IMG/VR virus record: IMGVR_UViG_3300042559_001930
Reading direction: 5' to 3' (one strand)
Length of the DNA: 20,649 nucleotides
Origin: an uncultured virus (IMG/VR IMGVR_UViG_3300042559_001930)
Lineage: Duplodnaviria > Heunggongvirae > Uroviricota > Caudoviricetes
A program made the translations under genes and the position numbers. Shown here one piece after another: positions 1,607 to 16,697 of the stretch (positions within the stretch are counted from its first letter, which is position 1; every line of letters begins with the position of its first letter). A model generated the notes under the pieces. The model did not search any database, was not told the origin of the DNA, and saw nothing but the letters and a program-made list of their open reading frames with translations.

Positions 1607-1636
1607 AAGGACCTGGGATGTCCTTAAACTCATCCA
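1607..1636 (+). ncRNA. Putative cis-regulatory pseudoknot element, copy A (GGAC subtype)
   Basis: AAGGAC-C-TGGGA-T-GTCCTT-AAAC-TC(AT)CCA. P1 is 1607-1612/1620-1625; the loop pairs with 1630-1636 around a 2-nt bulge. Confidence 0.6.
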
Positions 1637-1656
1637 CTCCACCTCAACATAATCTC

Positions 1657-1848
1657 ATGAACAGCACTGAACTACACGCCATGATTGCCCGCATGGACAG
1701 CTATGGCGGATCATTCGTCTCATCTATTGCACAAGCATTGCGCTTTGCTGATCCAACGAATCGGCAGCGTTTGCTTGATGCATTCCCTGACCTCGTCCAA
1801 CAGTATGGACCTGAAGGCCGGTTTGCCAAAGCCAAGCAACTCACATAG
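1657..1848 (+). CDS. Hypothetical phage protein (GGSF...A...AD..N...L..AFP type)
   Basis: ORF 1618-1848; start moved to ATG 1657 because the ATG at 1618 lies inside the repeat element. Confidence 0.75.
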   Translation: MNSTELHAMIARMDSYGGSFVSSIAQALRFADPTNRQRLLDAFPDLVQQYGPEGRFAKAKQLT

Positions 1849-1857
1849 GTGTAACTC

Positions 1858-2106
1858 ATGATTGTTTTGTTAATCGAAGACACATTCATTGATGGCAACG
1901 ATGTCACAGTTACAGCAGTGGTTGACGACATGCGTCTCATCCATCGGTCAACTTACCTTGACCCTGAAGAATATGCTCCTGCGTTATGCAGGGCTAGCTT
2001 CGAACTGGATGAGGGAGAACAAATCCCTCTTGACGAAGATGGCTTCTGCAGTTATCTTACTCACCTCGAGCCTAACTGGGAACTACTTCCAGTAGACAAC
2101 GACTAA
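1858..2106 (+). CDS. Hypothetical acidic protein (82 aa)
   Basis: ATG ORF filling the gap between neighbours. Confidence 0.7.
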   Translation: MIVLLIEDTFIDGNDVTVTAVVDDMRLIHRSTYLDPEEYAPALCRASFELDEGEQIPLDEDGFCSYLTHLEPNWELLPVDND

Positions 2107-2110
2107 CCGT

Positions 2111-2139
2111 ACGTCCTGGACATGACGTTAAACTGTCCA
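2111..2139 (+). ncRNA. Putative cis-regulatory pseudoknot element, copy B (CGTC subtype)
   Basis: ACGTC-C-TGGACA-T-GACGT-TAAAC-TGTCCA; P1 5 bp, P2 6 bp, both perfect. Confidence 0.7.
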
Positions 2140-2161
2140 CTCACTACGAACTCACTACGAA
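2140..2161 (+). repeat. Tandem direct repeat CTCACTACGAA x2 in the leader of the PcfJ-domain gene
   Basis: 2140-2150 and 2151-2161 are identical. Confidence 0.85.
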
Positions 2162-2167
2162 CTTACC

Positions 2168-3913
2168 ATGGAATTCCGTCTTCCTTCTAACCTCCAATCA
2201 GAACTACTGGCTTACGATCCCAAGTTTAAACAACTGCACCAGGAACAGAACCCTAAGGTTACTAAGGCTAAGCCTAAGTTTCCACTTGGCGCTGTATTTG
2301 ATTTGATTCCTGCTGATGTCATCAGACCTGCAGCAGTAGAAGAAGCAGTAACTAGCATCAACTCCAGGGGTATAGAAAATCGTCACCATCGATTTACCAA
2401 GGTGGTAAATATTGCTACACCTACTGCACGTACTATCACACATGCTGTCATCTATCACTATGAGAAAGTGTGGTATGCAGCATGGCTACCACCTAAAGGA
2501 CACGAAGATGACTATGTGTATGGCTATGCTTACGCTTATAAGAATCTAGATTCAGTACGCAAGTCTTTGCTTCATATCTTGATTGAGAACAACAGCAAGC
2601 GTACTGTTGAATACGTTAAGTATGGACGGAGTGAATTCTGTGTTGTACGTCACAATGTAACCAAGCAAGACATTGCTAATGGCATGACTGCAAAGATGTG
2701 GAACCCAGGATATATTTCGTACGGCAAAGGCGTTTACATTAGAGACGCTGCTAATGCTTTTGAATCTACGCTGTCTGAAACAATACCTAAATGGCATGAT
2801 TCACGTGGCTTCTTTGATCGCATTGCTATCAACGACTGGGCCACCATCCTTCAGCTCAAAGGATATGCACGTTATTGGGATCAGTTTGATGATGCAGCAC
2901 AAGCCAAGCGTGATCTACTTCCTTCTGCTGATCTTATCTATAATCTTGCAGCTACTTACCCAAGTAATAACTCATTGCATGAGCATGATACTTATCTTGC
3001 AAGTCGCGTTATTCATATCATTGGCAAACCATACTTCCGCAAATGGATGCAATCACAATGTGATGAGGCCATTGCAATGTTCCAGGATCCAGATAATAAC
3101 TTGTTTTACAAGATAACTCAACCATGGAAACGTATTCACAAGCTAATCAAGTCTATTGATTACGTTAATAAGATTTGGCCTGACTGTCCCATTGATTTCT
3201 ATCAATCACACGTGCAAGAACTATTGGGCTTGCATCTTGACCGTAGGACAACAGACAAAGCAATTACCTGGTTGCGTGCCAACATGCAGCCATCTTCTTT
3301 CTTTAATATGATTGCATTGCATTATGCAAAGCAAGCAGAAGATGTAGCTCTTGCTCATCGGCATACCTGTTACATAGCTACCGAGACTGGAGTCAATACA
3401 TTCTTCATAAGTGAATGGCATGACACCTTGTCAATGCTTGGCGACGTACTAGACCATGGCATGCCTATGCCTACACCAAAGCGTTGGCGTCTCACTGAGT
3501 TCCATGATCATGTGCAAGCAGAAGCATGGAAGATCAAGCATCCAAACGTTAGCCTGCCCCAGGATCTATTCCCTGCTCCTGTCAAGGTAGAGGTGGGTGA
3601 TGAGCGTTGGTCATTCTTCCAGCCTCATGACACACATCAATTGTCAGCATGGGGCCAGGCTGTACGTAACTGCGTCGGCAATGCCAAGGACTATGCTAAT
3701 GGCGTACGCAAGAAGAAACATTTCATTGTGCTTTGTATGGTTGACAACAAGCCTCAGTTCACTGTTCAACTTAAGGTTGACATGGGTATGATGACAGTCA
3801 GCCAGATTGTTGGCATCTCTAACCAAAGGTTGACGGATGAGCAAAAGGATGCCTACACACAAGCCTTTAGCAAGGCGTTGCATTCCCGCAATGATGAGCT
3901 AGAGTCTGCGTAG
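2168..3913 (+). CDS. PcfJ domain-containing protein (581 aa)
   Basis: C-terminal region EFHDHV...QPHDTHQLSAWGQAVRNCVG..YANGVRKKKHFIV...TVQL...VSQIVGISN matches the PcfJ-like pattern (L..EG..M.HCVG.Y...V....I...Q..G..N). Confidence 0.75.
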   Translation: MEFRLPSNLQSELLAYDPKFKQLHQEQNPKVTKAKPKFPLGAVFDLIPADVIRPAAVEEAVTSINSRGIENRHHRFTKVVNIATPTARTITHAVIYHYEKVWYAAWLPPKGHEDDYVYGYAYAYKNLDSVRKSLLHILIENNSKRTVEYVKYGRSEFCVVRHNVTKQDIANGMTAKMWNPGYISYGKGVYIRDAANAFESTLSETIPKWHDSRGFFDRIAINDWATILQLKGYARYWDQFDDAAQAKRDLLPSADLIYNLAATYPSNNSLHEHDTYLASRVIHIIGKPYFRKWMQSQCDEAIAMFQDPDNNLFYKITQPWKRIHKLIKSIDYVNKIWPDCPIDFYQSHVQELLGLHLDRRTTDKAITWLRANMQPSSFFNMIALHYAKQAEDVALAHRHTCYIATETGVNTFFISEWHDTLSMLGDVLDHGMPMPTPKRWRLTEFHDHVQAEAWKIKHPNVSLPQDLFPAPVKVEVGDERWSFFQPHDTHQLSAWGQAVRNCVGNAKDYANGVRKKKHFIVLCMVDNKPQFTVQLKVDMGMMTVSQIVGISNQRLTDEQKDAYTQAFSKALHSRNDELESA

Positions 3914-3925
3914 CCCGCACAGGCT

Positions 3926-3957
3926 TGCCAGCCTTAGCCTCGATACTAGGGCTGGCA
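3926..3957 (+). other. Intergenic stem-loop (12-bp stem with one G-U); possible terminator or processing site
   Basis: TGCCAGCCTTAG-cctcgata-CTAGGGCTGGCA just after the PcfJ stop; no real U-tract follows. Confidence 0.5.
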
Positions 3958-3964
3958 TTCATCC

Positions 3965-4189
3965 ATGACTGAGTACACCGACGACCAACTGCTGGCACAA
4001 GCACTTGCCAATCTTGGTGAGTACATACATACTCATGGTACGCCTGACTATGTATTGATTGATGCAGACGATCCTCGTAACGAGGAAGACTATGACACAT
4101 GGAGTTATGGTACTGAGCCATTACCCCATGACCACACTTGGCAGCATACATCAATTGATGTATGCATAAGTCCAAGTGAGCCCGAGTAG
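3965..4189 (+). CDS. Hypothetical acidic protein (74 aa); last 10 nt overlap the tRNA
   Basis: ATG ORF with protein-like acidic composition. Confidence 0.6.
   Translation: MTEYTDDQLLAQALANLGEYIHTHGTPDYVLIDADDPRNEEDYDTWSYGTEPLPHDHTWQHTSIDVCISPSEPE
4144..4165. repeat. Perfect 22-bp palindrome GCATACATCAATTGATGTATGC
   Basis: Self-reverse-complementary; ends 14 nt upstream of the tRNA. Confidence 0.85.
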
Positions 4190-4255
4190 CCCAGCGGAAG
4201 AGGCAAGCGACTTAAAATCGCTCCAGCGTGAGTTCGAATCTCACCTCGGGTACCA
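4180..4255 (+). tRNA. trnL: tRNA-Leu(TAA) with encoded CCA and a short variable loop
   Basis: Acceptor GCCCGAG/CTCGGGT; D arm GCC...GG...GGC; anticodon arm AGCGA-CTTAAAA-TCGCT; variable loop CCAGC; T arm GTGAG-TTCGAAT-CTCAC; discriminator A then CCA. Confidence 0.93.
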
Positions 4256-4279
4256 AACTACACATTGCACATTTGAATT

Positions 4280-4492
4280 ATGTCAGCTCAAAACAATTAT
4301 CTTGACATCATTGCTGCTTGCATAGGAGATGTTTCAGACTCCATTGATGCAATTGATACAAAAGACATTGTACTTTCAATCAGTGAACTAGCCAATGTCT
4401 TGAAAGAGACTAATAAACTATTGAAAGAAGTAGCTGATAGCAATAAAGCTATTGCTATGAATGCTTATCAATATGTAGCAAACAAAGTTTGA
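4280..4492 (+). CDS. Hypothetical protein (70 aa, coiled-coil-like)
   Basis: AT-rich ATG ORF directly after the tRNA. Confidence 0.65.
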   Translation: MSAQNNYLDIIAACIGDVSDSIDAIDTKDIVLSISELANVLKETNKLLKEVADSNKAIAMNAYQYVANKV

Positions 4493-4555
4493 TTAAACTT
4501 GGGCATCCGCAAGGTATAAGTCCCAAGTATCACCCATCTACTCAACTCAAACACA

Positions 4556-4918
4556 ATGAACATCTTTGCCTGCTTCAAGCACATCATCCCTGAGTTCCAT
4601 GCATACTCAGATGCCGACCAGCGTTACAACATTGGTGCTACCTGGACAGCACAGGATGGTCTCCATGACTACCACAACTTAGAGATCAAGTACGTCCACA
4701 ACTCTGAGCGGCTTGCGCTCCAGGGCGATCCACAGCCTGATGGCAGCTGGCGGTACGTAGCTCCTGATGGTGGCATCCATGTCATGTCAGCAGAGCGTGC
4801 ACGTGCCTTCATGGAGCAGACCCATGCCCATGCCAACATCATGTGCGGCATGCTTGACCGTCTTAAGGAAAACGGAATGCTAGATCAGGTGGTAGACACG
4901 CAGGCCCAAGCAGCGTAG
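4556..4918 (+). CDS. Hypothetical protein (120 aa)
   Basis: ATG after an ACTCAACTCA leader; followed by a terminator-like hairpin. Confidence 0.8.
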   Translation: MNIFACFKHIIPEFHAYSDADQRYNIGATWTAQDGLHDYHNLEIKYVHNSERLALQGDPQPDGSWRYVAPDGGIHVMSAERARAFMEQTHAHANIMCGMLDRLKENGMLDQVVDTQAQAA

Positions 4919-4939
4919 AATTCATCCGGAAATATCTGG

Positions 4940-4968
4940 GACCCCTGCGCAAGCGGGGGTCTTTCTCT
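4940..4968 (+). terminator. Probable intrinsic terminator with a GCAA tetraloop
   Basis: GACCCCTGC-GCAA-GCGGGGGTC followed by TTTCTCT. Confidence 0.65.
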
Positions 4969-5310
4969 ATGAATCAACCCAGTCCAATTGATACTGATCT
5001 CATTGATCAAATTGTTGCACACATACCTGACTGGGCATGGGATCCTGTATGTCAAGTACTTGTGCCTGCAATTGTTGACAACATGACTGGTTTTGTTATT
5101 GAAAAACTAACTGGACAGTATGACAACTTTGATCGAGCAGAGGAAATTCTGTTTGATTATTACAAACCATTGGACAAGAAACATGCTTTAATTGTTGATT
5201 GTTTTAAATTGTTAAGCCCGCATGTAACTGTCGACATGCTTGATGCCCTTAACTTAGATCAACTTAAATCCAACGAAACAAATGAAATGCCATCAGTGTC
5301 AATCAACTAA
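4969..5310 (+). CDS. Hypothetical protein (113 aa)
   Basis: ATG ORF overlapping the next gene. Confidence 0.7.
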   Translation: MNQPSPIDTDLIDQIVAHIPDWAWDPVCQVLVPAIVDNMTGFVIEKLTGQYDNFDRAEEILFDYYKPLDKKHALIVDCFKLLSPHVTVDMLDALNLDQLKSNETNEMPSVSIN

Positions 5311-5620
5311 CACACGTGTCACGTGTACTGATCATCACGAGACATTAACCAAGCGCTACATCCGTTGCTTGGATTGCGGTTGTAAGTTTCGTACTATTGA
5401 AAAGTATGAAGTGTACAAGCGTGGTCCTAAGAAAAGCGGTAAGCTTCCTGATACACAAGGATCTAAGAATGGATTCTCAGTATTGACTGAGCAAAACATC
5501 TTGGATATCCGCAAGTTGAAACAAGATGGCAAAACTAATTTTGCTATCTCAGTTATCTACGGTATCAACCGTGGACACGTTTCAAAAATTGTCAATCGCA
5601 AAGTCTGGACTCACATCTGA
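5282..5620 (+). CDS. Zn-ribbon (NrdR N-terminal / Ogr-Delta-like) plus HTH putative transcription regulator
   Basis: MKCHQCQSTNTRV...RYIRCLDCGCKFRTIE (CxxC...CxxC) followed by GSKNGFSVLTEQNILDIR...ISVIYGINRGHVSKIVNRKVW, an HTH of the kind found at the C-terminus of phage HNH proteins. Confidence 0.7.
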   Translation: MKCHQCQSTNTRVTCTDHHETLTKRYIRCLDCGCKFRTIEKYEVYKRGPKKSGKLPDTQGSKNGFSVLTEQNILDIRKLKQDGKTNFAISVIYGINRGHVSKIVNRKVWTHI

Positions 5621-5916
5621 TGTCAAACAGAACCAATCGAATCTTTCAAGTTGGTGATCGTGTTGCCGAACGTCCCAAGACTCATGGCATGGTTGCAGTA
5701 CGTGCTGAAGCCAAGGAACAAGTAGCTAAGTATCGCAGTCAACGGTACGGAACAGTGGTTGACTTTACTTCCAAGAAGATTAAGTCTGGTGGTTACCAAA
5801 AGTTTCTTGTGATCCAATGGGATCATCTGCAAACACCATGCGAACATGCACGTGGTCGCATCTGTCACCTTGATGAGTTTCCGAAACTCATGCGTGAAAC
5901 AACTGTTGTTTACTGA
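5620..5916 (+). CDS. Hypothetical protein (98 aa; FQVGDRV...GTVV, SH3/KOW-like pattern)
   Basis: TGATG stop/start coupling with the previous gene. Confidence 0.7.
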   Translation: MSNRTNRIFQVGDRVAERPKTHGMVAVRAEAKEQVAKYRSQRYGTVVDFTSKKIKSGGYQKFLVIQWDHLQTPCEHARGRICHLDEFPKLMRETTVVY

Positions 5917-5921
5917 TTACC

Positions 5922-6269
5922 ATGACTGAACACCCGATTACACCGCCGCCTGAGCTGGTAAAGCAGTGGCGCTCTGAGCCCGAATACTCAGACGGTCACC
6001 ACAAGATCACAATGGTAACCATGTCGCAAGATCGCCTAATGGAGATTTGCGAAAAGTCCGCTTTACACGGCGCCGACCAGGAGCTGGAGGCGTGCTGCGT
6101 ATTGATGGACAAATGGGACCTCGGCGGCCCAGACCTGCGTGAATGCCGCCGCCCAAAACCTCCGAGTTTGAAGGAACAGGCACTAGAAACGCTGAAATAT
6201 CCAAAAGATTTTTGGAGTGAAGCTGAGGTGGACACCATTCGTTTAGCACTGGAGCAACTTGATGACTGA
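5922..6269 (+). CDS. Hypothetical phage protein (ITPPPELV.QW...GADQELEAC...RRPKPPSLKEQAL type)
   Basis: Pattern I associate with freshwater cyanophage-like genomes; ATG ORF. Confidence 0.75.
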   Translation: MTEHPITPPPELVKQWRSEPEYSDGHHKITMVTMSQDRLMEICEKSALHGADQELEACCVLMDKWDLGGPDLRECRRPKPPSLKEQALETLKYPKDFWSEAEVDTIRLALEQLDD

Positions 6270-6453
6270 TCTTTCCCCTGCTAGTCAAGCAATCCTTGAT
6301 GCTATTGCTGAATGGGAAGTAGAACCTGATTCGTATTCCCATCAAATTGTTATTGCTACTCTCTATGCATTAGCATCACGCATTAAAGGAGCCGACCATA
6401 TTCGGCAAGACATTTTAGACATTGCCAACGAACTGGAGAACATCAATGGTTAG
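6262..6453 (+). CDS. Hypothetical protein (MTDLSPASQAILDA type)
   Basis: Overlaps the previous stop; ATG at 6262. Confidence 0.7.
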   Translation: MTDLSPASQAILDAIAEWEVEPDSYSHQIVIATLYALASRIKGADHIRQDILDIANELENING

Positions 6454-6721
6454 CTATCTCACCAGGAAGATGACTGATAAAGACTTCTATCTTTCTCAGG
6501 CATCTAGGCCAAGACCAGCTACTGCCTTCAGTCAATACCGTGGTGTAAGCCGAGGTAACAAAGGTATGTACAGGGCAATGCTGACCTTCAAAGGGAAGCG
6601 CTACTACCTTGGTAATCATGTCAATGAGATTGATGCAGCACGTGCCTATAACAAAGCAGCGCTTGCAATCATTGGTGACTATGCTTTACTAAACGAAATT
6701 CCAAGTGATGACAATGTCTAA
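6446..6721 (+). CDS. AP2-domain DNA-binding protein (stand-alone)
   Basis: SQYRGVS...YRAMLTFKGKRYYLG...EIDAARAYNKAALAIIGDYALLN is a typical AP2 domain; start may be 6446 or 6470. Confidence 0.8.
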   Translation: MVSYLTRKMTDKDFYLSQASRPRPATAFSQYRGVSRGNKGMYRAMLTFKGKRYYLGNHVNEIDAARAYNKAALAIIGDYALLNEIPSDDNV

Positions 6722-7349
6722 TGCCAAGCTGGTTTGGGTAACTCCCAATGCAGAAGAAATGATTGTGAAGATGGCACGCGTAAGTGCGCCATCAAACCAA
6801 GGCAACATGGATACAGCGCCACGCCTGTTGAAGTACTTGATTAATCACAAGCATCATTCACCATTTGAGATGGCCAATCTTTGTGTTGAAATCGAAACAA
6901 CTCGTGGTATTTCAGCGCAGATCCTGAGGCACCGTTCATTCTCGTTCCAAGAATTCAGTCAGCGTTATGCAGACGTAGGTGAACTAGGCTCATCTGTTAT
7001 CCCACATCTGCGCAGGCAAGACCTCAAGAATCGTCAGAACAGTATTGACGATCTGTCTCCTGATGTAATTGCTGGGTACTACCGACGCATTGGCCATCTG
7101 TTTGAAGATGCAGAACATCTGTACCGCGAGATGGTTAGCAGTGGTGTTGCCAAGGAATGTGCACGTGCTGTACTTCCTATTGCAACCAAGACAAAGATGT
7201 ATATGAACGGAACGCTCCGTTCATGGATCCACTATCTGCAACTGCGTTGTGATGTAAGTACTCAGCTTGAGCATCGGCAAATTGCAGAAGAGATTAAAGA
7301 GATTTTCTGCGAACAATTCCCCATCATTGGCGAGGCTGTATTCGAATGA
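6714..7349 (+). CDS. thyX: FAD-dependent thymidylate synthase
   Basis: H.SPFE, QILRHRSFSFQEFSQRY (RHRx7S motif), G.AKECAR.VLP, LRSWIHYLQLR, Q.EHR; alternative starts at 6705 and 6708. Confidence 0.96.
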   Translation: MSNAKLVWVTPNAEEMIVKMARVSAPSNQGNMDTAPRLLKYLINHKHHSPFEMANLCVEIETTRGISAQILRHRSFSFQEFSQRYADVGELGSSVIPHLRRQDLKNRQNSIDDLSPDVIAGYYRRIGHLFEDAEHLYREMVSSGVAKECARAVLPIATKTKMYMNGTLRSWIHYLQLRCDVSTQLEHRQIAEEIKEIFCEQFPIIGEAVFE

Positions 7350-7675
7350 CTGACAAACCTTCTAAGAAATGGATTCGTGATTACGACTATGCAATGTTTG
7401 AAGTGGAATACGATCAAACATTAAATGAGTATATAGATTACATAAAAGAATTAATCAATGAAGGATGGGAAGGTATTGAAATGGTGCCCCGGGGATATGA
7501 CAATTGTTATTATCCATTCCTTTATAAAACACGTATGGAAACAGATGTTGAATTCCAAGCTCGTTTAGAACTTGCAGAAAAAGAACAGAAAAAGAAAATT
7601 AAAGCTGCGGAAAGGAAACGTAGACAGTACGAAAAACTTAAAAAGGAATTTGAACCCAATGGAATACCCAATTAA
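7346..7675 (+). CDS. Hypothetical protein (109 aa, charged C-terminal helix)
   Basis: ATGA overlap with thyX; AT-rich. Confidence 0.7.
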   Translation: MTDKPSKKWIRDYDYAMFEVEYDQTLNEYIDYIKELINEGWEGIEMVPRGYDNCYYPFLYKTRMETDVEFQARLELAEKEQKKKIKAAERKRRQYEKLKKEFEPNGIPN

Positions 7676-7883
7676 AGAGCTTGCCATTCAACACTGGGAA
7701 GCTCTTGTACTAGGTGGATTGGATGGACGTGAGTACACAGACTCAATGCTCTACATCCGCAATGCCTTGAACTTTGTGCCAGATGATTTGATGTCTGGTG
7801 TGGTTAAGGTGGTGGATGGTGAGCACTCTCTCGTACTGACCTGCCCGCCGTCCACCGGCGACGGAATGCCTAGTGACTCCTGA
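7659..7883 (+). CDS. Hypothetical protein (74 aa)
   Basis: ORF 7572-7883; the ATG at 7659 (MEYPIKEL) minimises overlap with the previous gene. Confidence 0.55.
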   Translation: MEYPIKELAIQHWEALVLGGLDGREYTDSMLYIRNALNFVPDDLMSGVVKVVDGEHSLVLTCPPSTGDGMPSDS

Positions 7884-7905
7884 AAAACTACGAACAGATC
7901 GTAGC

Positions 7906-7951
7906 ACCAAATCCCCTGCGCTGCAGGGGACCTGGTCAAATATATTTTTTT
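7906..7951 (+). terminator. Possible intrinsic terminator
   Basis: TCCCCTGC-gct-GCAGGGGA core, extended by ACCA/TGGT; T-run at 7945-7951, somewhat distant from the stem. Confidence 0.5.
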
Positions 7952-7986
7952 ATGGCTACAATGACAATGAATTAACTTTCACGTAA

Positions 7987-9126
7987 ATGCATCCCGAAGA
8001 AGCCAGGAAACTTTTCTTTAAAGAAGTTGACAATTGTTATTGGAATCCAAAGCTAAGTATCAAAGTTGCTCCTAACGGAGATCGTACTATTGTTACGTCA
8101 GCTGCATTGCAAAAAGATGAACCACTTGTTGTTTTAAATAAAAACGCGTCTTTTAGTGCAGCCAAATGCATTGAGCATTCCAAGGAAAACATTTCTACTA
8201 TTCCTAAATCAATAATTATTCCTGCATATCTTTATCAGGTTTATACAAAGCATGGCGCTAATGTGCCAGATGGTTATTCGTATTATTTTGATTCGTTGCC
8301 AACATATGAATGGTACGCACAAAACCATGAGCTGCTTAAAGTTTATTTACAATTAACTGAATCACGAAAAGAAGAATTAAAAGAATCTTGTTTTTTGTTT
8401 GATCAAATTAATTCTCTTAGCGAGTGGGCAAAGCAACTGCCTGAACATCAACTAGACAAAGAGCAAGCTATTCGCAGTGTTCTTATAACCATGACTAGGT
8501 GCTGGCCTTCTTCTATTGGGTTGGTACCATGGCTTGACTTTTCTAATCATCATTACGATGGAAGTGTTTTAAAGAACGAAGGAACTACGATTACAGCTTC
8601 TCATGAATACGAAGAAAATGAAGAGGTCAATGTAAGTTATGGCTTGAAAGATAGTCTTCAGCTATTAAATATCTATGGTTATGAAACAAAAGAGAAAACG
8701 GTTGGGATTAAATTTCCTTCAATTTCTACTTTTGCTTTAGCTTCTGATCCATCGCTTAAAGCTTATGCTCACGCTTCGGCCTCTGCCACATGTTTACTTG
8801 GAAAGAACTTAAGGAATTTTGATTTCTTTATTTCACACATGAGGCTTTGTGTGTTTAATAAATTTGATGCTCTTGCGGTTTCCGATTTAGGAACAGAATA
8901 TAAAACTTTTTTAAATGAGCGTAATGAGCTAGAAGCTTTAAAACTTTCTTTGAGTATTATTCAATCTACGCGTAAAGATATTGAAGAACTAAAAACTAAA
9001 ACCAAAGAATTTATGCAAACATTTCCTGAATCTTTTGAAAATGATTTCAAAGGTAAAGAGGAAGTTCTTGACAATGTAATTAAAAAGATTTATAAACATT
9101 GGCTTGATTTACTGAAAGAAAGCTAA
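7987..9126 (+). CDS. SET-domain protein lysine methyltransferase, Rubisco-LSMT/SETD3-like
   Basis: N-SET (GDRTIVTSAALQKDEPLVVL), YFDSLP, TR.W, LVPWLDFSNHH (the P..D..NH SAM-binding motif), EEVNVSYGLKDSLQLLNIYGY (E.....YG...LL..YG), then a helical C-terminal domain (MRLC...NELEALKL). Confidence 0.8.
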   Translation: MHPEEARKLFFKEVDNCYWNPKLSIKVAPNGDRTIVTSAALQKDEPLVVLNKNASFSAAKCIEHSKENISTIPKSIIIPAYLYQVYTKHGANVPDGYSYYFDSLPTYEWYAQNHELLKVYLQLTESRKEELKESCFLFDQINSLSEWAKQLPEHQLDKEQAIRSVLITMTRCWPSSIGLVPWLDFSNHHYDGSVLKNEGTTITASHEYEENEEVNVSYGLKDSLQLLNIYGYETKEKTVGIKFPSISTFALASDPSLKAYAHASASATCLLGKNLRNFDFFISHMRLCVFNKFDALAVSDLGTEYKTFLNERNELEALKLSLSIIQSTRKDIEELKTKTKEFMQTFPESFENDFKGKEEVLDNVIKKIYKHWLDLLKES

Positions 9127-9131
9127 GCATC

Positions 9132-9160
9132 ACGTCCTAAGCAAGACGTTAAACTGCTTG
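9132..9160 (+). ncRNA. Putative cis-regulatory pseudoknot element, copy C (CGTC subtype)
   Basis: ACGTC-C-TAAGCA-A-GACGT-TAAAC-TGCTTG; followed by a CCC-GCAA-GGG hairpin. Confidence 0.7.
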
Positions 9161-9199
9161 CCCCGCAAGGGATCTGGTAATATTCCTGTACGGGAATAT

Positions 9200-9227
9200 G
9201 GACCTGAGATGTCCCTAAACTCATTCA
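9200..9227 (+). ncRNA. Putative cis-regulatory pseudoknot element, copy D (GGAC subtype)
   Basis: GGAC-C-TGAGA-T-GTCC-CTAAAC-TC(AT)TCA; TGA/TCA here covaries with TGG/CCA in copy A. Confidence 0.6.
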
Positions 9228-9259
9228 TTAGTCCCGCTTATCAATCACATTCAACACCA

Positions 9260-10027: not shown

Positions 10028-10032
10028 GATAC

Positions 10033-10060
10033 TTGCATAACTAAATAAATCGGTTAACAT
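10033..10060 (+). promoter_or_regulatory. Possible sigma70-type promoter for the DNA polymerase operon
   Basis: TTGCAT-16 nt-TAACAT in an AT-rich intergenic region; overlaps the hairpin CGGTTA/TGACCG. Confidence 0.35.
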
Positions 10061-10083
10061 CTGACCGTTCTTGTTTTGTTCAG

Positions 10084-10317
10084 ATGAGCTACGTCGTTGC
10101 TACATGGAAGGATGGGATTCCTCACGCCATAACTGCGTGTAACCAATCCAATTCATTTCAATTAATTCCGTTAGACTCTGACGTAGCTCTTAACAAGATC
10201 TTCTCTCATCCGTATCGTGCGGGTGCACAGCAAGTCTTGACGTGGATTAACAAGAATGACCAAGACCTTTCTCGCGAAGAACTCTCAATTCAAGATGAAG
10301 CCCGATTCCGTAAATGA
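10084..10317 (+). CDS. Hypothetical protein (77 aa)
   Basis: ATG ORF upstream of, and overlapping, the polymerase start. Confidence 0.65.
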   Translation: MSYVVATWKDGIPHAITACNQSNSFQLIPLDSDVALNKIFSHPYRAGAQQVLTWINKNDQDLSREELSIQDEARFRK

Positions 10318-12121
10318 ACGTTGGCTGATCTTTGACATTGAGACTGACAATCTTTATGACAAGGTCACGCTGACCCATTGCATTGTCATTCATGACATCA
10401 CAAGCCAACAAACTTTTACTTATGGGCCTGATCGTATTGCTGCTGCTCTTGATCATCTGGCAACCGCTGATGTACTCATTGGCCACAACGTAATTTTTTA
10501 TGACCTACCCGTATTGGTAAAGTTGTATCCCGAATTCAAACACAACGCACGTGTCATAGACACGCTCATCTGCACACGACTCATCTGGCCCAAGGAACTT
10601 CTCTATGACCTTGACATCGAACAATATCCGCAGGTTCCAAAGAACTTGCGGGGTTCAGCTTCGCTCAAAGCCTGGGGCTGGCGACTTGCTGACCACAAGA
10701 TTGACTTCAAAGATTTTAAAGAGTATTCCCAAGAGATGTTGGACTACTGTGTCCAGGACGTTCAAGTCACAAAGAAACTCTGGGAACATACTGTCAAGCA
10801 GAACTACCAACCAACTGCGCTCAAACTTGAGCATGACTTTGCCTTGGCGATTAACAAACAAATTAGAGCAGGTATTCCTTTCGATGTGGATGCTGCTATT
10901 GATTTGGTGGATGATCTCCGAGCAAAAGAAACAGAACTCGTTCAACATCTGAAAGAAATTTTTCCAGCCATCAAACATGAAACGGTCTTTATCCCGAAGG
11001 TCAACAACACTAAACGTGGGTATGTCAAGGGTGAGCCGTTTATTAAAGTCACGTACGAAGAATTTAATCCTGGATCTCGTTCGCAAATTGTTGAACGACT
11101 ACAACAAAAGTACAATTGGATTCCAGAGAAAACTACTGAGAAAGGTAATCCGACTCTTGATGACGATATACTCGGAGCGCTTCCGTACCCAGAAGCTAAA
11201 CCGTTAGCTGAATACATGCTGATCAAGAAACGTCTTGGTCAGATTGCGGATGGTAACAATGCTTGGCTCAAGCTTGTTAACAATGAAAACGGACGCATGC
11301 ACGGTGATGTGATCACCAATGGATGTATTACAGGCCGTTGTGCGCACCGATCTCCAAACATGGGTCAAGTACCAGCAGGTTATTCACCTTATGGAAAAGA
11401 ATGCCGTTCGTTATTTCATGCTCCTGATGGTTGGGATCTTATTGGGATCGATGCTAAAGCTTTGGAGCTTAGGTGCCTTGCCGGTTATCTAGCCATTTGG
11501 GATAACGGTGAGTATGCAGAACTTGTAACAGATCCAACCGGAGACATCCATACCTATAACCAACAACAGTTTGGTGTGGAGACCAGGGACATTAGTAAGC
11601 GTTTGTTGTATGGAATGCTGTATGGATGCGGATCTGTTAAGGCAGGTACAATCATTGACCCGAATGAAAAAGATGAATTTGTTCTGCGCAAACTAGGAAG
11701 TACTGCAATCAATTCATTTATGGATGGCGTGCCAGCCTTAAAGAAATTGAAACGTGAGATTGAAAATAACATTGCAACACGCAACTATTTATATGGATTG
11801 GATAAACGTACGTTGCATTGTCGTTCTGCATTTAAGGGATTGAATGTTTTATTACAATCAGCTGGTGCAATCATCATGAAGCAAGTTGTTGTAACCATTC
11901 ACAACAACATTGAACAAAACCTTGGCTTGGTGCACGGCAAGGATTGGGAACAAGTCTTGATGGTCCACGATGAGATTCAACTTGTTTGTAATCCCGCGTA
12001 CACAAAGCAGATCAGAGAGCAGGCTATGATTGCCTTCCCAGCTGCTGGAGACTTCTTTAATTTTCGTTGCAAGATTGAAGGTGACTCCCGGATTGGATAC
12101 AGTTGGGCAGATACTCACTGA
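10295..12121 (+). CDS. polA: Family A DNA polymerase with 3'-5' exonuclease (T7 gp5-like)
   Basis: ExoI FDIETD, ExoII GHN..YD.P, ExoIII YC.QDV, FNPGSR.Q, TGR, motif A DAKALELR, motif B RDISKRLLYGMLYG, motif C VHDEIQ; start is 10295 or 10256. Confidence 0.96.
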   Translation: MKPDSVNERWLIFDIETDNLYDKVTLTHCIVIHDITSQQTFTYGPDRIAAALDHLATADVLIGHNVIFYDLPVLVKLYPEFKHNARVIDTLICTRLIWPKELLYDLDIEQYPQVPKNLRGSASLKAWGWRLADHKIDFKDFKEYSQEMLDYCVQDVQVTKKLWEHTVKQNYQPTALKLEHDFALAINKQIRAGIPFDVDAAIDLVDDLRAKETELVQHLKEIFPAIKHETVFIPKVNNTKRGYVKGEPFIKVTYEEFNPGSRSQIVERLQQKYNWIPEKTTEKGNPTLDDDILGALPYPEAKPLAEYMLIKKRLGQIADGNNAWLKLVNNENGRMHGDVITNGCITGRCAHRSPNMGQVPAGYSPYGKECRSLFHAPDGWDLIGIDAKALELRCLAGYLAIWDNGEYAELVTDPTGDIHTYNQQQFGVETRDISKRLLYGMLYGCGSVKAGTIIDPNEKDEFVLRKLGSTAINSFMDGVPALKKLKREIENNIATRNYLYGLDKRTLHCRSAFKGLNVLLQSAGAIIMKQVVVTIHNNIEQNLGLVHGKDWEQVLMVHDEIQLVCNPAYTKQIREQAMIAFPAAGDFFNFRCKIEGDSRIGYSWADTH

Positions 12122-12135
12122 GTATTTGTTTAATC

Positions 12136-12162
12136 CGTCCCAGGTATGACGTTAAACTGCCT
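12136..12162 (+). ncRNA. Putative cis-regulatory pseudoknot element, copy E (CGTC subtype)
   Basis: CGTC-C-CAGGTA-T-GACG-TTAAAC-TGCCT; P2 is AGGTA/TGCCT. Confidence 0.7.
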
Positions 12163-12184
12163 TAACACCTAACTTCTCAAGGTA

Positions 12185-13000
12185 ATGAATCACGTCTGCG
12201 TTTGTGCTCAGCTGAATGAAACCCCACGCGAGGTTTACATCAGCGCATCCTCTACTGCCATGCGCTGTATGGTATTGCTTCCTCCCGTAGGAAACAAAGC
12301 ACCAACTCCAATTCAACTCAATGTCTATGGTAAAACTGCTGAGCGCTTTTCCAGGCTGAAAGAAAAATCTTTGGTGTTTATTTATGGCGCCAAGATTCGT
12401 TATGATCTTGAATCTAAATCTCATTCACTGCATGGTGGAATTATTCACCAGGTCAATGATGAGTTTCCAATCATCAATGATGTAATCCTTTCTGGCCGCT
12501 GCGTTAAAGACATTGACCGTGAGGATGCACGTGCATTCAAGACCACGGCAACTGGTCTGATGATCTGCAATCAAACCTTGTCGGTTAGCACTGGCCGCAA
12601 CCAAGCAGATCTCTTTAACTTCTATGCGATCAACTCGCATGAAGATAAGTTGAACAATGCGGAACTGTTGGTAAACTTCACGCGTAAAGGCGTGGGTCTT
12701 ACCATTAAGGGTCGGCTTGTTACTGATGCATGGACTGATCAGACCACAAATGAAAAGCGTATTCAAACCAAAATTCAATTGGTAAACATGACCCTTGCAC
12801 CCAAGGGAAATGCAAGCGATCAACCAAGAGAGATCAAAGCACAGACTACGGTAAGTGCACCGGAGAATGTGTCTACTCTTTGGGGTGGCCGCACGCTAGA
12901 AGAATCAACTGATCCTTGGAACCAAGCTTCTGGTGGTGGTCTGCCTGAACTTCCTGGGCAATATGGTTCTGCTCCTGACCTTGAAGAAATTCCTTTTTGA
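12185..13000 (+). CDS. ssb: Single-stranded DNA-binding protein with two tandem OB folds
   Basis: Two SSB-like repeats (MNHVCVCAQL...YGKTAE...V.I.G and INDVILSGR...AE...RKG....KGRL.TDAW.D), a low-complexity linker and the acidic tail DLEEIPF. Confidence 0.8.
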   Translation: MNHVCVCAQLNETPREVYISASSTAMRCMVLLPPVGNKAPTPIQLNVYGKTAERFSRLKEKSLVFIYGAKIRYDLESKSHSLHGGIIHQVNDEFPIINDVILSGRCVKDIDREDARAFKTTATGLMICNQTLSVSTGRNQADLFNFYAINSHEDKLNNAELLVNFTRKGVGLTIKGRLVTDAWTDQTTNEKRIQTKIQLVNMTLAPKGNASDQPREIKAQTTVSAPENVSTLWGGRTLEESTDPWNQASGGGLPELPGQYGSAPDLEEIPF

Positions 13001-13005
13001 TTACC

Positions 13006-13233
13006 ATGACAATTCAAATTGATTGCTTGGATCCTGAGCCTATGTGCTTGGAAGATGCAATGGCCTACGAGTTCTTCATGGACAACGTAAGCATTTGCTT
13101 TCAAGACAAAGAGCAAGATGGAGAAGATCTTGCAACTTCAATAGCAGTACTTGCCAAGTCTGCTTATTTGATTGCAGAGATTTTTACTGAAGCCCGTAAC
13201 CAACACATTGAAAAAACTAATGGCACAGTCTGA
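13006..13233 (+). CDS. Hypothetical protein
   Basis: ORF 12997-13233; first ATG at 13006. Confidence 0.65.
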   Translation: MTIQIDCLDPEPMCLEDAMAYEFFMDNVSICFQDKEQDGEDLATSIAVLAKSAYLIAEIFTEARNQHIEKTNGTV

Positions 13234-13459
13234 TCAACGGATGAAGTTTACTTTGGAAGAAGAAGAGTACACCATCGTATTCCAAAGCGATGGTGTTACC
13301 ACCGATGAGATTCTTGAGCACTTCATTATGTTTATGAAGGGCTGTGGGTACCATGAAGACAGTATTTATTCATCGCTTCAGGAAACCATTGATGAGCGTG
13401 AAGCTTTGTCAAAGGCTCGTGCTCTTTATGACATGGATGCCTGCAAGGACCTAGTATGA
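13220..13459 (+). CDS. Hypothetical phage protein (EILEHF..FMKGCGY type)
   Basis: ATG 13220 overlaps the previous gene; the motif is common in small phage proteins. Confidence 0.7.
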   Translation: MAQSDQRMKFTLEEEEYTIVFQSDGVTTDEILEHFIMFMKGCGYHEDSIYSSLQETIDEREALSKARALYDMDACKDLV

Positions 13460-13464
13460 GGACC

Positions 13465-13491
13465 CGCCTCGGGATGGCGTTAAAAGCGTCC
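13465..13491 (+). ncRNA. Degenerate copy F of the pseudoknot element
   Basis: CGCC-TCGGGAT-GGCG-TTAAAA-GCGTCC. P1 covaries (CGCC/GGCG); P2 is only GGA/TCC. Same position relative to the stop and ATG as the other copies. Confidence 0.4.
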
Positions 13492-13513
13492 ACGCCCAAC
13501 CCCTGAACACACC

Positions 13514-14530
13514 ATGACTGTTTCCATGACTACCAAGAAAACTTCTGCGCTTGCAACACGTGGCCTCGATTCTTTCAAACTTTTTCAATCTAAAGAGTTT
13601 GTCTCAGGATACCAAAACCTCGTTACGATTCAGCCCCTCAACAAATCCAAGACACGAGGTTGGTTCGTGCGGAACTCAGACCTTGACACTTGCGGATGGA
13701 GTGCCACTGAAAATCAATTTGCTAAGGGTTCAGTTATCTGGAACTACAAACAAACTTTTGGTATGGCTCCCAACACTTCAATTGAAGAGGGACTCAATTT
13801 TGTTGAGCCTCGCATTCAAATCCTTCTACGTTCTCCCCTCATGGTTGAGGAAACCACAGGGATGAGGCAGACGATTGGTACCTTTGACGACCCAGCTGTC
13901 AAAGAATTGTTTGAAGCTGACAAGATTGCATCTGATCTTGCCAACAGCAAAGGTGAGATGTACAAGCGTAAGTACAGTGTACGTACAAAGTACCTGGTGT
14001 ACATCCTTACGGAAGACAATAAGCGTGCTCACAAGATCCCTATGGTGTTGACACTGAAGGGATTGAATGGTACCGATGTCAGCGACAAGGTTAAGCTGTA
14101 CGAAAAAGAAATGTCCAAGTGCTTGAGCAAGGCACTGGATGCTGAAGTACCCCTGAGCTTCAATGAAAAGTTCTACGCAACTACCGTATTTGCTCCAGTA
14201 CTTGCCAATGAGATGCGCGGAGCCAACAACGTTGAGATCTGCGCAATTGAATCTTTTGACATCCCTGGTTACAGCAACCAAGAGGAAGCAGTCGAATCAT
14301 TGAATCGCATGTCGATTCCTGATGAAGACCGCGAATCTACTTGGAAGTTCCAGGAACTCTTCAGTGACTATATAAATCAACATGCACGTCAGGATGCTGA
14401 CAAGCTTGGTGGTGCTTATGGAATCAAGCCGGGTGTTGAGATCCTTCCTGTGTCTCGCACCATGGATGCTGTGGAGGTTAAAGCACTACCTTCTCGTGAT
14501 GCACTTACGGGTGAGGACACGTCACTCTGA
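13514..14530 (+). CDS. DUF5895-like protein (cyanobacterial/cyanophage family of unknown function)
   Basis: GWFV...L...GW, PRIQILLRSPL and KYLVYIL..DN...H.IP..LT.KG resemble my recollection of DUF5895; the CDS is certain, the family is tentative. Confidence 0.6.
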   Translation: MTVSMTTKKTSALATRGLDSFKLFQSKEFVSGYQNLVTIQPLNKSKTRGWFVRNSDLDTCGWSATENQFAKGSVIWNYKQTFGMAPNTSIEEGLNFVEPRIQILLRSPLMVEETTGMRQTIGTFDDPAVKELFEADKIASDLANSKGEMYKRKYSVRTKYLVYILTEDNKRAHKIPMVLTLKGLNGTDVSDKVKLYEKEMSKCLSKALDAEVPLSFNEKFYATTVFAPVLANEMRGANNVEICAIESFDIPGYSNQEEAVESLNRMSIPDEDRESTWKFQELFSDYINQHARQDADKLGGAYGIKPGVEILPVSRTMDAVEVKALPSRDALTGEDTSL

Positions 14531-14782
14531 TTTGACTTGAGGATTAGACAAGTCTTCTTCATTAACAGCAACGTTGTTAAAGATGAACATGTCTTGTACT
14601 AATCCCCTAATCACACCTTGACGTTGAGTGGCGATCTGCGCAAGCAAGGTCGCCATTTCTTTTAAGGTACTTACTGAATTGCAATCTTCAATTGATCGTT
14701 TGATTTTTTCTAGCCAAAACTTATCATCAAGCGTTGGTTCAATTTGAAATTTAGTTAATGGTACGTATTTGATTTCTTCCAT
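14522..14782 (-). CDS. Hypothetical protein (86 aa); the only complete minus-strand gene
   Basis: Fills the 14531-14861 gap; helical, protein-like sequence; 9-nt convergent overlap with the previous gene. Confidence 0.75.
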   Translation of the reverse strand: MEEIKYVPLTKFQIEPTLDDKFWLEKIKRSIEDCNSVSTLKEMATLLAQIATQRQGVIRGLVQDMFIFNNVAVNEEDLSNPQVKSE

Positions 14783-14861
14783 GGTTTATTCAGTTGGCAC
14801 CCATAGGTTACATCTATAGTAAACCCTAGATCAAAACTTCAAAATGTATTAACAATCACAA

Positions 14862-15065
14862 ATGAAACCTGAAGAAAAAGCTGCAATCAAGGACGGTGCC
14901 GCAACTGCTGCCATAGCAGGAGTGGTTGCCTTGGCCATTGGTAGTCCTGTATGCTGGGCTGGCGTTCTTTACGGAACGTATCGGATGGCACGCTTGGCCT
15001 ACAAGCGGACCAAGTATCGTGATACACTTCACGACAGGGACCAGGACGCTGATCTCTTCATCTAA
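14862..15065 (+). CDS. Small putative membrane protein
   Basis: Hydrophobic stretch AATAAIAGVVALAIGSPVCWAGVLYG followed by basic residues. Confidence 0.7.
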   Translation: MKPEEKAAIKDGAATAAIAGVVALAIGSPVCWAGVLYGTYRMARLAYKRTKYRDTLHDRDQDADLFI

Positions 15066-15079
15066 CTCAACTCAGACTC

Positions 15080-16021
15080 ATGCAACTCCAAACCGAACTC
15101 AACTCAGCCCAAGCCCTCATCTATTCACGGTCCAACATTCGTCGTGCGTATGCAGACTTTGATGACACCGAAATCTCTGGCATTTATCTGCGAGATGACA
15201 ATTGTGTTGTGGTGCGTTGTGATGGTAGTGAGCAGGCTTACGAACGGACGTTGATCAAGACAGCGTTCCAGCAGTATACTCACCGACTCAAAGACTTCTT
15301 TTCTTACCTTGGTCCTAATTACCGTGGCCCTAGTGTATGGCATAACAATGCTTACGTTATGTTTAAGGGCTGGAACTATTCACACGCACTCGGACACCTG
15401 ACTTCCAATGCCAAGCTCCAACAACACTGGGCAGACAAGTTCATTCATCTGTCAGACCCCAGCAAAGTCGTTGCCCTCCTCCAGAATGACCAGACGGATC
15501 TGGGACATCTGGTTGCGCCGGATGGGCTTCGGAGTCCGACTCGGCCAATTGACTTGGAGTCTGAGTTGGAGGAAAACGCCTCCGGTGTTCAGGCCAGCAC
15601 TCCTGAACCTTACTGCTCATGTGGGTCCTTTCAGCGTCAACTTCTTAATGTTTCGTTATTCCAACAAGAGATTGAAGGATTCAAACCCTGGTGCATCCAC
15701 CTGACTTGGTTCCATAAATACCGTGAGCTGCTGTGCAAGCGTACTGAAGTGCGTAATGCATTGCCCAGTGGTACGCCTGACAAGTGTGTGGCATGGTGGT
15801 ATGCCCCGCCCCAGGACCATATCAGTGAAGGCAAGTTTGTATTGCTGCACACCAAGTCTGGTGCTCAGGCTCCGCTGACTCATTGGCGTACGTACAAACC
15901 AAAGGAAGTGTTTAACCAAGGGCATGCCTGGGATTTGTTTTTCAATATGATGGAGGCAGGCTATGTACCATTCCCTGGTACTGCATTGCCACAACTGCAG
16001 TCTGCTGTCAAAAAGAAATGA
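15080..16021 (+). CDS. SWIM-type zinc finger-containing protein (313 aa)
   Basis: YCSCGSFQRQ...KPWCIHL fits CxC-x(n)-CxH; ACTCAACTCA leader. Confidence 0.7.
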   Translation: MQLQTELNSAQALIYSRSNIRRAYADFDDTEISGIYLRDDNCVVVRCDGSEQAYERTLIKTAFQQYTHRLKDFFSYLGPNYRGPSVWHNNAYVMFKGWNYSHALGHLTSNAKLQQHWADKFIHLSDPSKVVALLQNDQTDLGHLVAPDGLRSPTRPIDLESELEENASGVQASTPEPYCSCGSFQRQLLNVSLFQQEIEGFKPWCIHLTWFHKYRELLCKRTEVRNALPSGTPDKCVAWWYAPPQDHISEGKFVLLHTKSGAQAPLTHWRTYKPKEVFNQGHAWDLFFNMMEAGYVPFPGTALPQLQSAVKKK

Positions 16022-16209
16022 GCTTTCTCAGTTGGGTTGAGAAGTTACAAGTGGAGGTAATTAACCAAGAAGATGGTGGTTGCATCATCCGCATTGAGTG
16101 GGATGATGCAGATCCAGATCTTGAATACTGGACAAACCTTGGTGAAGAAGGACAAAAATCCTTTATCATCGAATCACTAACCAATGCTCTTGACTGCTAT
16201 GTCGATTGA
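16018..16209 (+). CDS. Hypothetical acidic protein (63 aa)
   Basis: ATGA coupling with the previous gene. Confidence 0.7.
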   Translation: MSFLSWVEKLQVEVINQEDGGCIIRIEWDDADPDLEYWTNLGEEGQKSFIIESLTNALDCYVD

Positions 16210-16525
16210 CACTTACGGCCTTGACGAAAATCGCTACGTTGAGATCTTTGAAGATAAAGCCAGGTTTCTTTTCAGGACAATGCATGCTCTTATTCGAGTA
16301 TCCCTGGAACAAAATGTAAACCTTGATGGGTGGCCTCACGACATCATCTGGAAGATGTACGAGTCTGTTACGTACAATGCCAGTGATGATGCTCGTGTCA
16401 TCCAGAAGACTGAAGCCCCTGAAAAAGTTGAAGAACGTTCGTATGATCCAATCACAATGTATAGTCGCCAAGACTTAATGGATGAAATAAAACTTATTAA
16501 AGAACTGTTGATCAAGGAAGTTTGA
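16199..16525 (+). CDS. Hypothetical protein
   Basis: ORF 16184-16525; likely start MSIDTY at 16199. Confidence 0.7.
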   Translation: MSIDTYGLDENRYVEIFEDKARFLFRTMHALIRVSLEQNVNLDGWPHDIIWKMYESVTYNASDDARVIQKTEAPEKVEERSYDPITMYSRQDLMDEIKLIKELLIKEV

Positions 16526-16529
16526 TCCA

Positions 16530-16558
16530 ACGTCCTGGTCATGACGTAAAACTGACTA
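16530..16558 (+). ncRNA. Putative cis-regulatory pseudoknot element, copy G (CGTC subtype)
   Basis: ACGTC-C-TGGTCA-T-GACGT-AAAAC-TGACTA. Confidence 0.7.
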
Positions 16559-16577
16559 CTACCTACACACTCAACTC

Positions 16578-16697
16578 ATGTTTGAAGCATTTGCATCTGC
16601 TGTACTTCCAGTACTAAAAGATATTCTTTGGACAGCAGCCGCGGCTTTGTTAGCCTTTGCATTAAACAAGCTTCAATCCAAATTCCAAAACATCTAG
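16578..16697 (+). CDS. Small membrane protein, 39 aa (not in the ORF track)
   Basis: MFEAFASAVLPVLKDILWTAAAALLAFALNKLQSKFQNI*; ACTCAACTC-ATG leader; stop lies 3 nt before the next ATG. Confidence 0.75.
   Translation: MFEAFASAVLPVLKDILWTAAAALLAFALNKLQSKFQNI

Follow-up and report, generated by a model that had tools for sequence, protein, structure and literature searches.

A covarying predicted RNA pseudoknot at gene boundaries of an S-EIV1-like cyanophage, and its distances from start and stop codons

The stretch analysed here (the window) is 20,649 nt long and corresponds to bases 62001–82649 of a complete 82.6-kb virus record from a lake cyanophage (IMG/VR IMGVR_UViG_3300042559_001930; G000 below). 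Its DNA polymerase is 71% identical to the polymerase of Synechococcus phage S-EIV1 and, judged by sequence, the window belongs to an S-EIV1-like cyanophage. The gene content is of the early, replication type, with PcfJ-like, ThyX, GP88, DNA polymerase, SSB, DUF5895 and Sipho_Gp157 genes. Repeated in this region is a 28-nt element, a predicted RNA pseudoknot (hereafter the knot), with seven copies in the window, A to G. Three further copies lie upstream in the genome, at 58253, 60400 and 60843, each 50 nt from an ATG, and all ten are on the + strand of the early region. A generic descriptor of the fold recovered six window copies, missing D, all of them on the + strand, while 200 shuffles of the sequence gave a mean of 0.2 matches and a maximum of 2.

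The element is composed of a 4-bp stem 1, an 8-nt loop (7 nt in A, D and F), a 6-nt A-rich linker and a stem 2 of 5–6 bp. Homologues were divided into those of the clade, meaning S-EIV1-like cyanophages, with 169 distinct copies, and 96 others, giving a full set of 265. At least five of the six stem 2 pairs form in 120 of the 139 distinct IMG/VR matches listed, which came from a pattern that left stem 2 unspecified. Across 36 diverse, hand-picked copies 96% of cells are paired and seven of the ten pairs show changes on both sides, compared with 21–48% pairing in slid controls. Stem 1 is CGTC/GACG in 235 of the 265 copies, a set built by a scan that required such a stem, and the rest carry compensatory changes. 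G-U pairs outnumber A-C mispairs by 139 to 30 among 1404 cells, and this excess points to an RNA read from the same, + strand. We describe the element as a covarying, predicted H-type RNA pseudoknot. No Rfam family matched any copy in the window or at 74 homologous loci; the pistol, twister and hepatitis delta virus (HDV) ribozyme folds do not fit the element itself. Tandem copies occur at seven loci (L073, L145, L164, L185, L204, L206 and L278), and the second copy of L164 has a short coremin-like loop, possibly a link between the two forms. At two further loci the knot sequence forms a spacer between CRISPR-like repeats (L183:601–628, Bradymonadales; L196:601–628, Calditrichia).

Table 1. 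Knot copies in the window with their leaders and adjoining reading frames (ORF, open reading frame; aa, amino acids).
Feature	Position	Strand	Description
Copy A	1609..1636	+	stem 1 GGAC/GTCC, 7-nt loop; 5 nt past stop 1603; 20 nt ahead of ATG 1657
Leader of copy A	1637..1656	+	G-free, unstructured; leader of 63-aa ORF 1657–1848
Copy B	2112..2139	+	stem 1 CGTC/GACG, stem 2 TGGACA/TGTCCA; 5 nt past stop 2106; 28 nt ahead of ATG 2168 (PcfJ-like gene)
Leader of copy B	2140..2167	+	doubled 11-nt motif, recurring with substitutions among relatives
379-aa ORF	7987..9126	+	insertion relative to closest relative L002; copy C behind it, no knot ahead
Copy C	9133..9160	+	6 nt past stop 9126; without a start codon of its own
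Copy D	9200..9227	+	stem 1 GGAC/GTCC, 7-nt loop; 32 nt ahead of ATG 9260 (GP88 family)
Leader of copy D	9228..9259	+	unstructured, 2 G
Copy E	12136..12162	+	14 nt past DNA polymerase stop 12121; 22 nt ahead of ATG 12185 (SSB)
Leader of copy E (SSB)	12163..12184	+	29 distinct homologous spacers: 21.0 ± 0.7 nt, 52% ungapped identity
Copy F	13465..13491	+	stem 1 CGCC/GGCG; linker without TAnnnT; 5 nt past stop 13459; ~22 nt ahead of ATG 13514 (DUF5895)
Copy G	16531..16558	+	stem 2 TGGTCA/TGACTA; linker without TAnnnT; 5 nt past stop 16525; 19 nt ahead of ATG 16578 (39-aa ORF before Sipho_Gp157)
Leader of copy G	16559..16577	+	G-free

The linker could also be read at the DNA level, with its TAAACT as a −10 box and the 21-nt leader as a short 5′ untranslated region. 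TAAACT does fit TAnnnT, and a transcription start 6–7 nt downstream would coincide with the knot end and leave a leader of ~20 nt. However, TAnnnT is missing from 21 of the 169 clade copies, F and G included, and 20 of these keep 46–63 nt to the start codon. No −35 consensus was seen upstream, and a sigma-70 test for a −35 at 16–18 bp or a TG extension gave no support; the region holds 18 sigma-70-like sites against 28.9 expected by chance, none of which uses a linker. The last linker T pairs with an invariant loop A, and both the G-U bias and the covariation need a single strand. We regard a promoter as highly improbable. One sigma-70-like site (9 of 12 positions; 13428–13457) ends 7 nt before copy F, in a region where such sites are below chance frequency.

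An earlier note on this DNA had given six distances from the first base of stem 1 (P1) to the downstream ATG, and recounting returned the same values: 48 (A), 56 (B), 60 (D), 49 (E), 49 (F) and 47 nt (G). Its description of the spacing as near-constant was not confirmed: the distances are tight within the clade, but the note passed over copy C, whose next real start is the ATG of copy D, 127 nt off, and the distribution is right-tailed above a floor and specific to the clade. The first ATG lies at 47–50 nt in 66 of 100 + strand clade copies, compared with 28 of 1090 knot-free control anchors. Among the 169 distinct clade copies, 110 are at 47–50 nt, 158 at 46–65 nt and three below 46 nt; measured from the knot end, 113 are 18–24 nt from the ATG, with a peak at 21–22 nt and three closer. 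S-EIV1 itself carries seven copies, and six of its annotated starts lie at 48, 49, 49, 51, 54 and 56 nt from P1, which makes the result independent of the start calling used here. Spacing differs among gene families, with 21.0 ± 0.7 nt for SSB leaders and 26 ± 2.8 and 31 ± 9 nt for others. The suggestion that B would measure 45 nt without an 11-nt duplication was not borne out: 27 copies before the PcfJ-like family span 47–57 nt, 45 nt falls under the clade floor, and the doubled motif recurs in substituted form in many relatives. In copies A and D an ATG within the loop shares the frame of the downstream ORF; these two were rejected as starts, as homologues use the later ATG and B, E and G have no such in-frame ATG.

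Outside the clade the spacing is broad. The earlier note had held that a broad distribution among homologues would speak against its view, and this is what the distance distribution gave. In a second sample, drawn by pattern only and limited to 271 copies with at least five stem 2 pairs, 136 of 145 clade copies but 24 of 126 others are at 46–65 nt; six of the 126 lie at 46–51 nt, 68 beyond 65 nt, and 24 have no ORF start in range. We also compared 13 cultured phages and one plasmid, drawn from the listed blastn matches. Paracoccus, Geobacillus-type D6E, Moorella, Staphylococcus, Lactobacillus and Bacillus phages place the knot ~53–97 nt from genes led by a Shine-Dalgarno (SD) sequence, and phages Molivia and NMeng1 carry it before tRNAs, not genes. 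The spacing alone is thus a clade-level feature, weaker than the knot family behind it.

The leaders themselves are as the earlier note described them, G-poor, SD-less and unstructured. From knot end to ATG they span 19–32 nt with 0–2 G, their anti-SD duplexes reach −0.3 to −1.3 kcal/mol (E is an exception at −4.0), and predicted folds range from 0 to −2.8 kcal/mol. Footprints of 30S subunits in E. coli cover −20 to +10 (bioRxiv 10.1101/2025.04.04.647229). The proposal that the structure sits just outside the 30S footprint therefore stands as geometry, with the knot ending 21–22 nt before the AUG and a floor at 18–19 nt. S1-dependent loading or standby is not supported as the function of the family, whereas the protective role that the note offered as its other choice is plausible.

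A loading role could still apply locally: at least in Synechococcus phages, the knot may bind S1 or the 30S platform and deliver the subunit over a fixed distance to an SD-less start codon. Leader length is kept while sequence drifts, as the SSB leaders show (Table 1), and S1 binds H-type pseudoknots (PMC7708055). Upstream space is slack for 61 clade copies, which have either no called ORF upstream or more than 20 nt to it, and 54 of them are still at 46–65 nt from the ATG. The unrelated Synechococcus myovirus (kyanovirus) S-H35 has the same layout, with 55 nt and a G-free leader; this layout, however, can be taken to track the SD-less initiation of the host rather than the knot. The reading frame that begins at that distance from the S-H35 knot is 55 aa long and lacks an annotation (L217:555 onward). 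The leader type is not knot-specific either: among 50 annotated + strand S-EIV1 starts used as a leader control, 44 are knot-free, and 13 of these 44 have at most one G in −20 to −1. Further points against loading are that copy C lacks a start codon, that distances of 47–64 nt are tolerated in several gene families, that 33 copies precede tRNAs and others ribozymes, and that spacing is broad outside the clade. The known standby case, tisB, serves a sequestered ribosome binding site ~100 nt away (PMC7708055), whereas start regions here are open. We consider loading an unlikely alternative.

The rule is sharper on the opposite side of the knot, a side that the earlier note did not consider: A, B, F and G begin exactly 5 nt past the upstream stop codon, and C 6 nt past it. 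Exactly 5 nt separates 58 of the 169 clade copies from a stop, with seven closer, and 41 of the 126 copies outside the clade lie 5–9 nt past a stop, with four closer. This 5-nt floor is the constant that does travel beyond the clade. A ribosome with a stop codon in its A site covers five bases on the 3′ side. The gap also matches frameshift geometry, and recoding at the upstream stop, by knot-stimulated readthrough or −1 frameshifting, would find a parallel in the coremin variants that stimulate −1 frameshifting in vitro (PMC10321173). Against this, the stop-to-ATG phase is spread over the three frames (35/38/21 in 94 copies), all three stop codons are used, and a slippery heptamer occurs in only 7 of 265 copies. 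The lack of in-frame bias and the rarity of slippery sites argue against recoding, to which we attach almost no weight.

The knot also adjoins features other than protein genes. Mirror-image scans of IMG/VR found 45 stretches with a knot followed by a tRNA and, with a slightly laxer pattern, 19 with a tRNA followed by a knot; 48 distinct copies remained after duplicates and copies with fewer than four stem 2 pairs were dropped. Of these, 33 lie 1–13 nt before a tRNA, 25 within 5 nt. Fifteen of the 33 follow a stop codon (eight at 5 nt), 11 have no called upstream neighbour and seven sit between two tRNAs. Eight of the 48 come after a tRNA but have none called behind them, and seven have no adjoining called tRNA. 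A combined knot-plus-tRNA pattern had no match in 228 loci. A Type III hammerhead follows the knot in five of six distinct loci (four by Rfam, one by eye) and, on a single GTDB contig, behind four copies, while none precedes it in seven stretches from the reverse-order scan; at L154 an HDV-like ribozyme follows. Cutting at tRNAs and hammerheads placed in this way would leave the upstream mRNA with the knot at its 3′ end. Other arrangements place it at a 5′ side: the early region starts with copy G000:58253, which lies behind a terminator-like hairpin, and 4 of 109 non-clade copies come directly after a T-run, some T-run copies preceding scaffold genes. As separate observations, three short viral contigs (L035, L050 and L147) have weak GIR1 lariat-capping ribozyme matches downstream of the knot, and in two more loci (L201:630–791 and L212) the knot lies directly before a weak DUF2800 RNA match.

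This modular placement could also suit a fast-folding insulator or roadblock, stopping ribosomes that slide on after termination and keeping upstream RNA from pairing with the next module (a start region, tRNA or ribozyme), with any nuclease block secondary. The knot does end a few bases from whatever comes next, 1–5 nt for the tRNA in 25 of 33 copies, ~0–6 nt for most ribozymes and 1–2 nt for a 20-nt ribosome pad. An insulator would account for the seven tRNA–knot–tRNA cases, and coremin is known to stall scanning ribosomes (PMC10520033). Roadblock data, though, come from eukaryotic lysates, and the copies with no called downstream feature (24 of 126) are left unexplained. We consider insulation as the main role rather improbable.

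Phages from many phyla carry the element, where it precedes scaffold genes, tRNAs and ribozymes. By blastn it matches 137 phage records, most of them from Staphylococcus (83) and Vibrio (27) phages. Phages of Escherichia, Klebsiella, Pseudomonas and Salmonella are absent from the ten named groups and from the 60 matches listed, and no Pseudomonadota title is among 34 GTDB stretches. Host range was considered as a link to RNase J and dropped as support, since a Vibrio phage and an Acinetobacter plasmid also carry copies that pair well. The breadth of the family bears on a further candidate, a protein operator of the T4 gene 32 kind, in which phage SSB or another protein would nucleate on the knot, coat the leader and repress several replication genes. 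Copy E precedes SSB, and a knot followed by an unstructured leader is the gene 32 layout; the role of the pseudoknot there is stated in PMC10690425. The same sequence nevertheless recurs across phyla before the unrelated features just named, and in Arthrobacter phage Molivia it comes after an SSB gene. An operator role appears very unlikely.

Taken together, the 3′-end and the 5′-side contexts fit a two-sided barrier. We propose, with a probability of about one half, that the knot is a protein-free exonuclease barrier at gene boundaries of a long early transcript, and that its distance from the start codon probably reflects room for the ribosome, not loading. In such a scheme the element would fold within the mRNA. 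A knot less than 5 nt from the upstream stop would be excluded because a terminating ribosome would unwind it, as the geometry of the entry tunnel suggests, and a knot ending less than ~18 nt from an SD-less AUG would be excluded because the 30S subunit needs ~20 open, G-poor bases. Selection may then hold both gaps near their minimum, limiting exposed single strand and giving stop + 5 + 28 + ~21 = 52–55 nt. By default the knot would halt 3′-to-5′ trimming of the upstream message; after a terminator or at the opening of an operon, it would halt 5′-to-3′ decay of the downstream message by RNase J. Polynucleotide phosphorylase (PNPase) requires a single-stranded tail of 10–12 nt (PMC10989914), a flaviviral exonuclease-resistant RNA (xrRNA) blocks RNase J1 (PMC5760640), and cyanobacteria are reported to have RNase J. 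The evidence favours protection of upstream mRNA 3′ ends at least as much as of downstream 5′ ends. The copy that opens the early region, the T-run copies and the AUG distance kept in the 54 slack copies weigh against a purely 3′ role. The spacing is real but clade-specific, and probably comes about as a side effect of fitting a barrier knot between the footprints of two ribosomes.

Several points weigh against a barrier or against the ribosome-room account of its spacing. The counts are taken over related homologues, about seven main gene families, and their independence is overstated. The spacing held despite upstream slack indicates that the position of the clade knots depends more firmly on the AUG than on the stop, which a loader would likewise predict. 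SD-led starts outside the clade come as near as 37–46 nt from P1. A −22 kcal/mol hairpin at 3926–3957 ends 7 nt before ATG 3965; structure as such is hence tolerated closer than 18 nt, and the floor is no rule for any structure. The seven knots between two tRNAs have no mRNA end there to shield, and a donor spacer could have brought copy C along as a hitch-hiker. The tested rules for Xrn1 resistance of coremin are not followed (none of 265 loops fits, and a second hairpin is present in only 6 of the 169 clade copies), and known frameshift knots failed to stop Xrn1 (PMC10321173).

Copy C is part of a difference from the closest relative, L002, which lacks both this copy and the 379-aa ORF. By tblastn the ORF is matched only in G000 and the near-identical L025, and blastn shows the corresponding gap against L002. 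The gene therefore seems to have arrived with a knot behind it, not in front. Within 7908–9180 this ORF, which has no family match, is inserted at a hairpin, and a short hairpin-adjacent stretch recurs at either end of the insert. Elsewhere in the window, the layout of the hairpin before ATG 3965 is the same in S-EIV1, before gene L001:15571, and a tRNA gene with a TAA anticodon (4180–4252, by Rfam) has no knot adjoining it. A second repeated structure family, at 4496–4532 and 810–830, recurs in S-EIV1 (L001, upstream of 11112 and 11809) and elsewhere in G000 (58861–58900). It has either a GCAA-capped hairpin or a loop resembling the tRNA T arm, followed by a G-poor leader, ~28 nt before ATG 4556, with a fold z of −2.6 and no Rfam match. 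A third repeated structured element lies in the early region (G000, 59111–59160 and 59694–59745), each copy preceding ~25 G-poor bases and then a start codon.

Eukaryotic viruses are known to carry nuclease-resistant RNA knots; in the literature searched we found none described for phages. If the barrier holds, the element would be a portable 28-nt stabiliser of mRNA ends that phages from many phyla share. It would also offer a test case for what RNase J does in cyanobacteria, where its role is poorly understood, and would amount to a coremin fold that is Watson–Crick throughout. The two floors, 5 nt after the stop and 18–19 nt before the AUG, would serve as evolutionary read-outs of ribosome footprints.

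Among known systems, the T4 gene 32 operator (PMC10690425) resembles copy E in placing a pseudoknot and an unstructured leader before an SSB gene. It serves one gene in T4, whereas the knot occurs ten times per genome, ahead of unrelated genes, and in other settings precedes tRNAs and ribozymes; the linker string is absent from the six supplementary files of that paper that were searched. The STAXI motif (RF01728; PMC2864571) is likewise a small pseudoknot near SSB and other DNA-handling genes, and some of our homologues are tandem (L073, L164, L204 and L278), but STAXI is tandem by definition and has UUCG loops, while the window copies are single and match no Rfam family. In tisB an H-type pseudoknot and then single-stranded RNA lie upstream of the start codon (PMC7708055). 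There the ribosome binding site is sequestered; here the start region is open and adjacent, at 19–32 nt, no sequestered site was found (start regions fold at 0 to −2.8 kcal/mol), and most non-clade homologues have no nearby start. PPR10-type barriers of chloroplasts (PMC3326301) share two-sided protection and SD-less starts, and the 3′ edge of their footprint lies ~20–60 nt before the AUG, ascribed to ribosome clearance and minimal exposed RNA. In that case a protein bound to RNA that is itself unstructured forms the barrier, and the likeness is a functional analogy only; in the proposed scheme RNA alone would provide the arrangement that PPR proteins give to chloroplast mRNAs.

The closest structural parallel is the coremin motif (xrRNA-C), known from beny-, cucumo- and further RNA viruses of eukaryotes and able to block both Xrn1 and ribosomes (PMC6546385, PMC10520033, PMC10321173). 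In the literature searched, with most subscription papers outside it, coremin appears only in papers on eukaryotic viruses and has no phage counterpart; the accessible text of the same three papers reports no solved structure of a fully Watson–Crick coremin fold. Both elements have the same type of 4-bp stem 1 (CGUC/GACG, PMC10520033), in most copies the same UUAAACU linker, and a pseudoknot between loop and linker end, and both often lie just past a stop codon or between genes. The coremin spacer is UUAAACUAC, with A16–A20 essential (PMC6546385). UUAAACU is kept in most of our copies, and the next base is G in 201 and A in 26 of 239. The phage element differs in its 8-nt loop starting with C-U, in its 5–6-bp Watson–Crick stem 2, in having no downstream hairpin in the clade, in its many copies per genome, its bacterial hosts and its fixed room before the AUG; any exonuclease resistance is putative. 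The coremin loop consensus YG(N)nAD (PMC10520033, PMC6546385) is found in none of 265 copies, 237 of which have loops starting CT. The second hairpin required for Xrn1 resistance (PMC6546385, PMC10321173) is present in 6 of the 169 clade copies and in 15 of the 96 others. The Watson–Crick stem 2 of the variant xrRNA-WCC is present, with 5–6 covarying pairs compared with 3 bp in WCC (PMC10321173). The G that begins the WCC loop, where the change G5C abolished resistance (PMC10321173), is absent from all 265 copies. On these sequence comparisons the element is a coremin-like variant, not a member of coremin.

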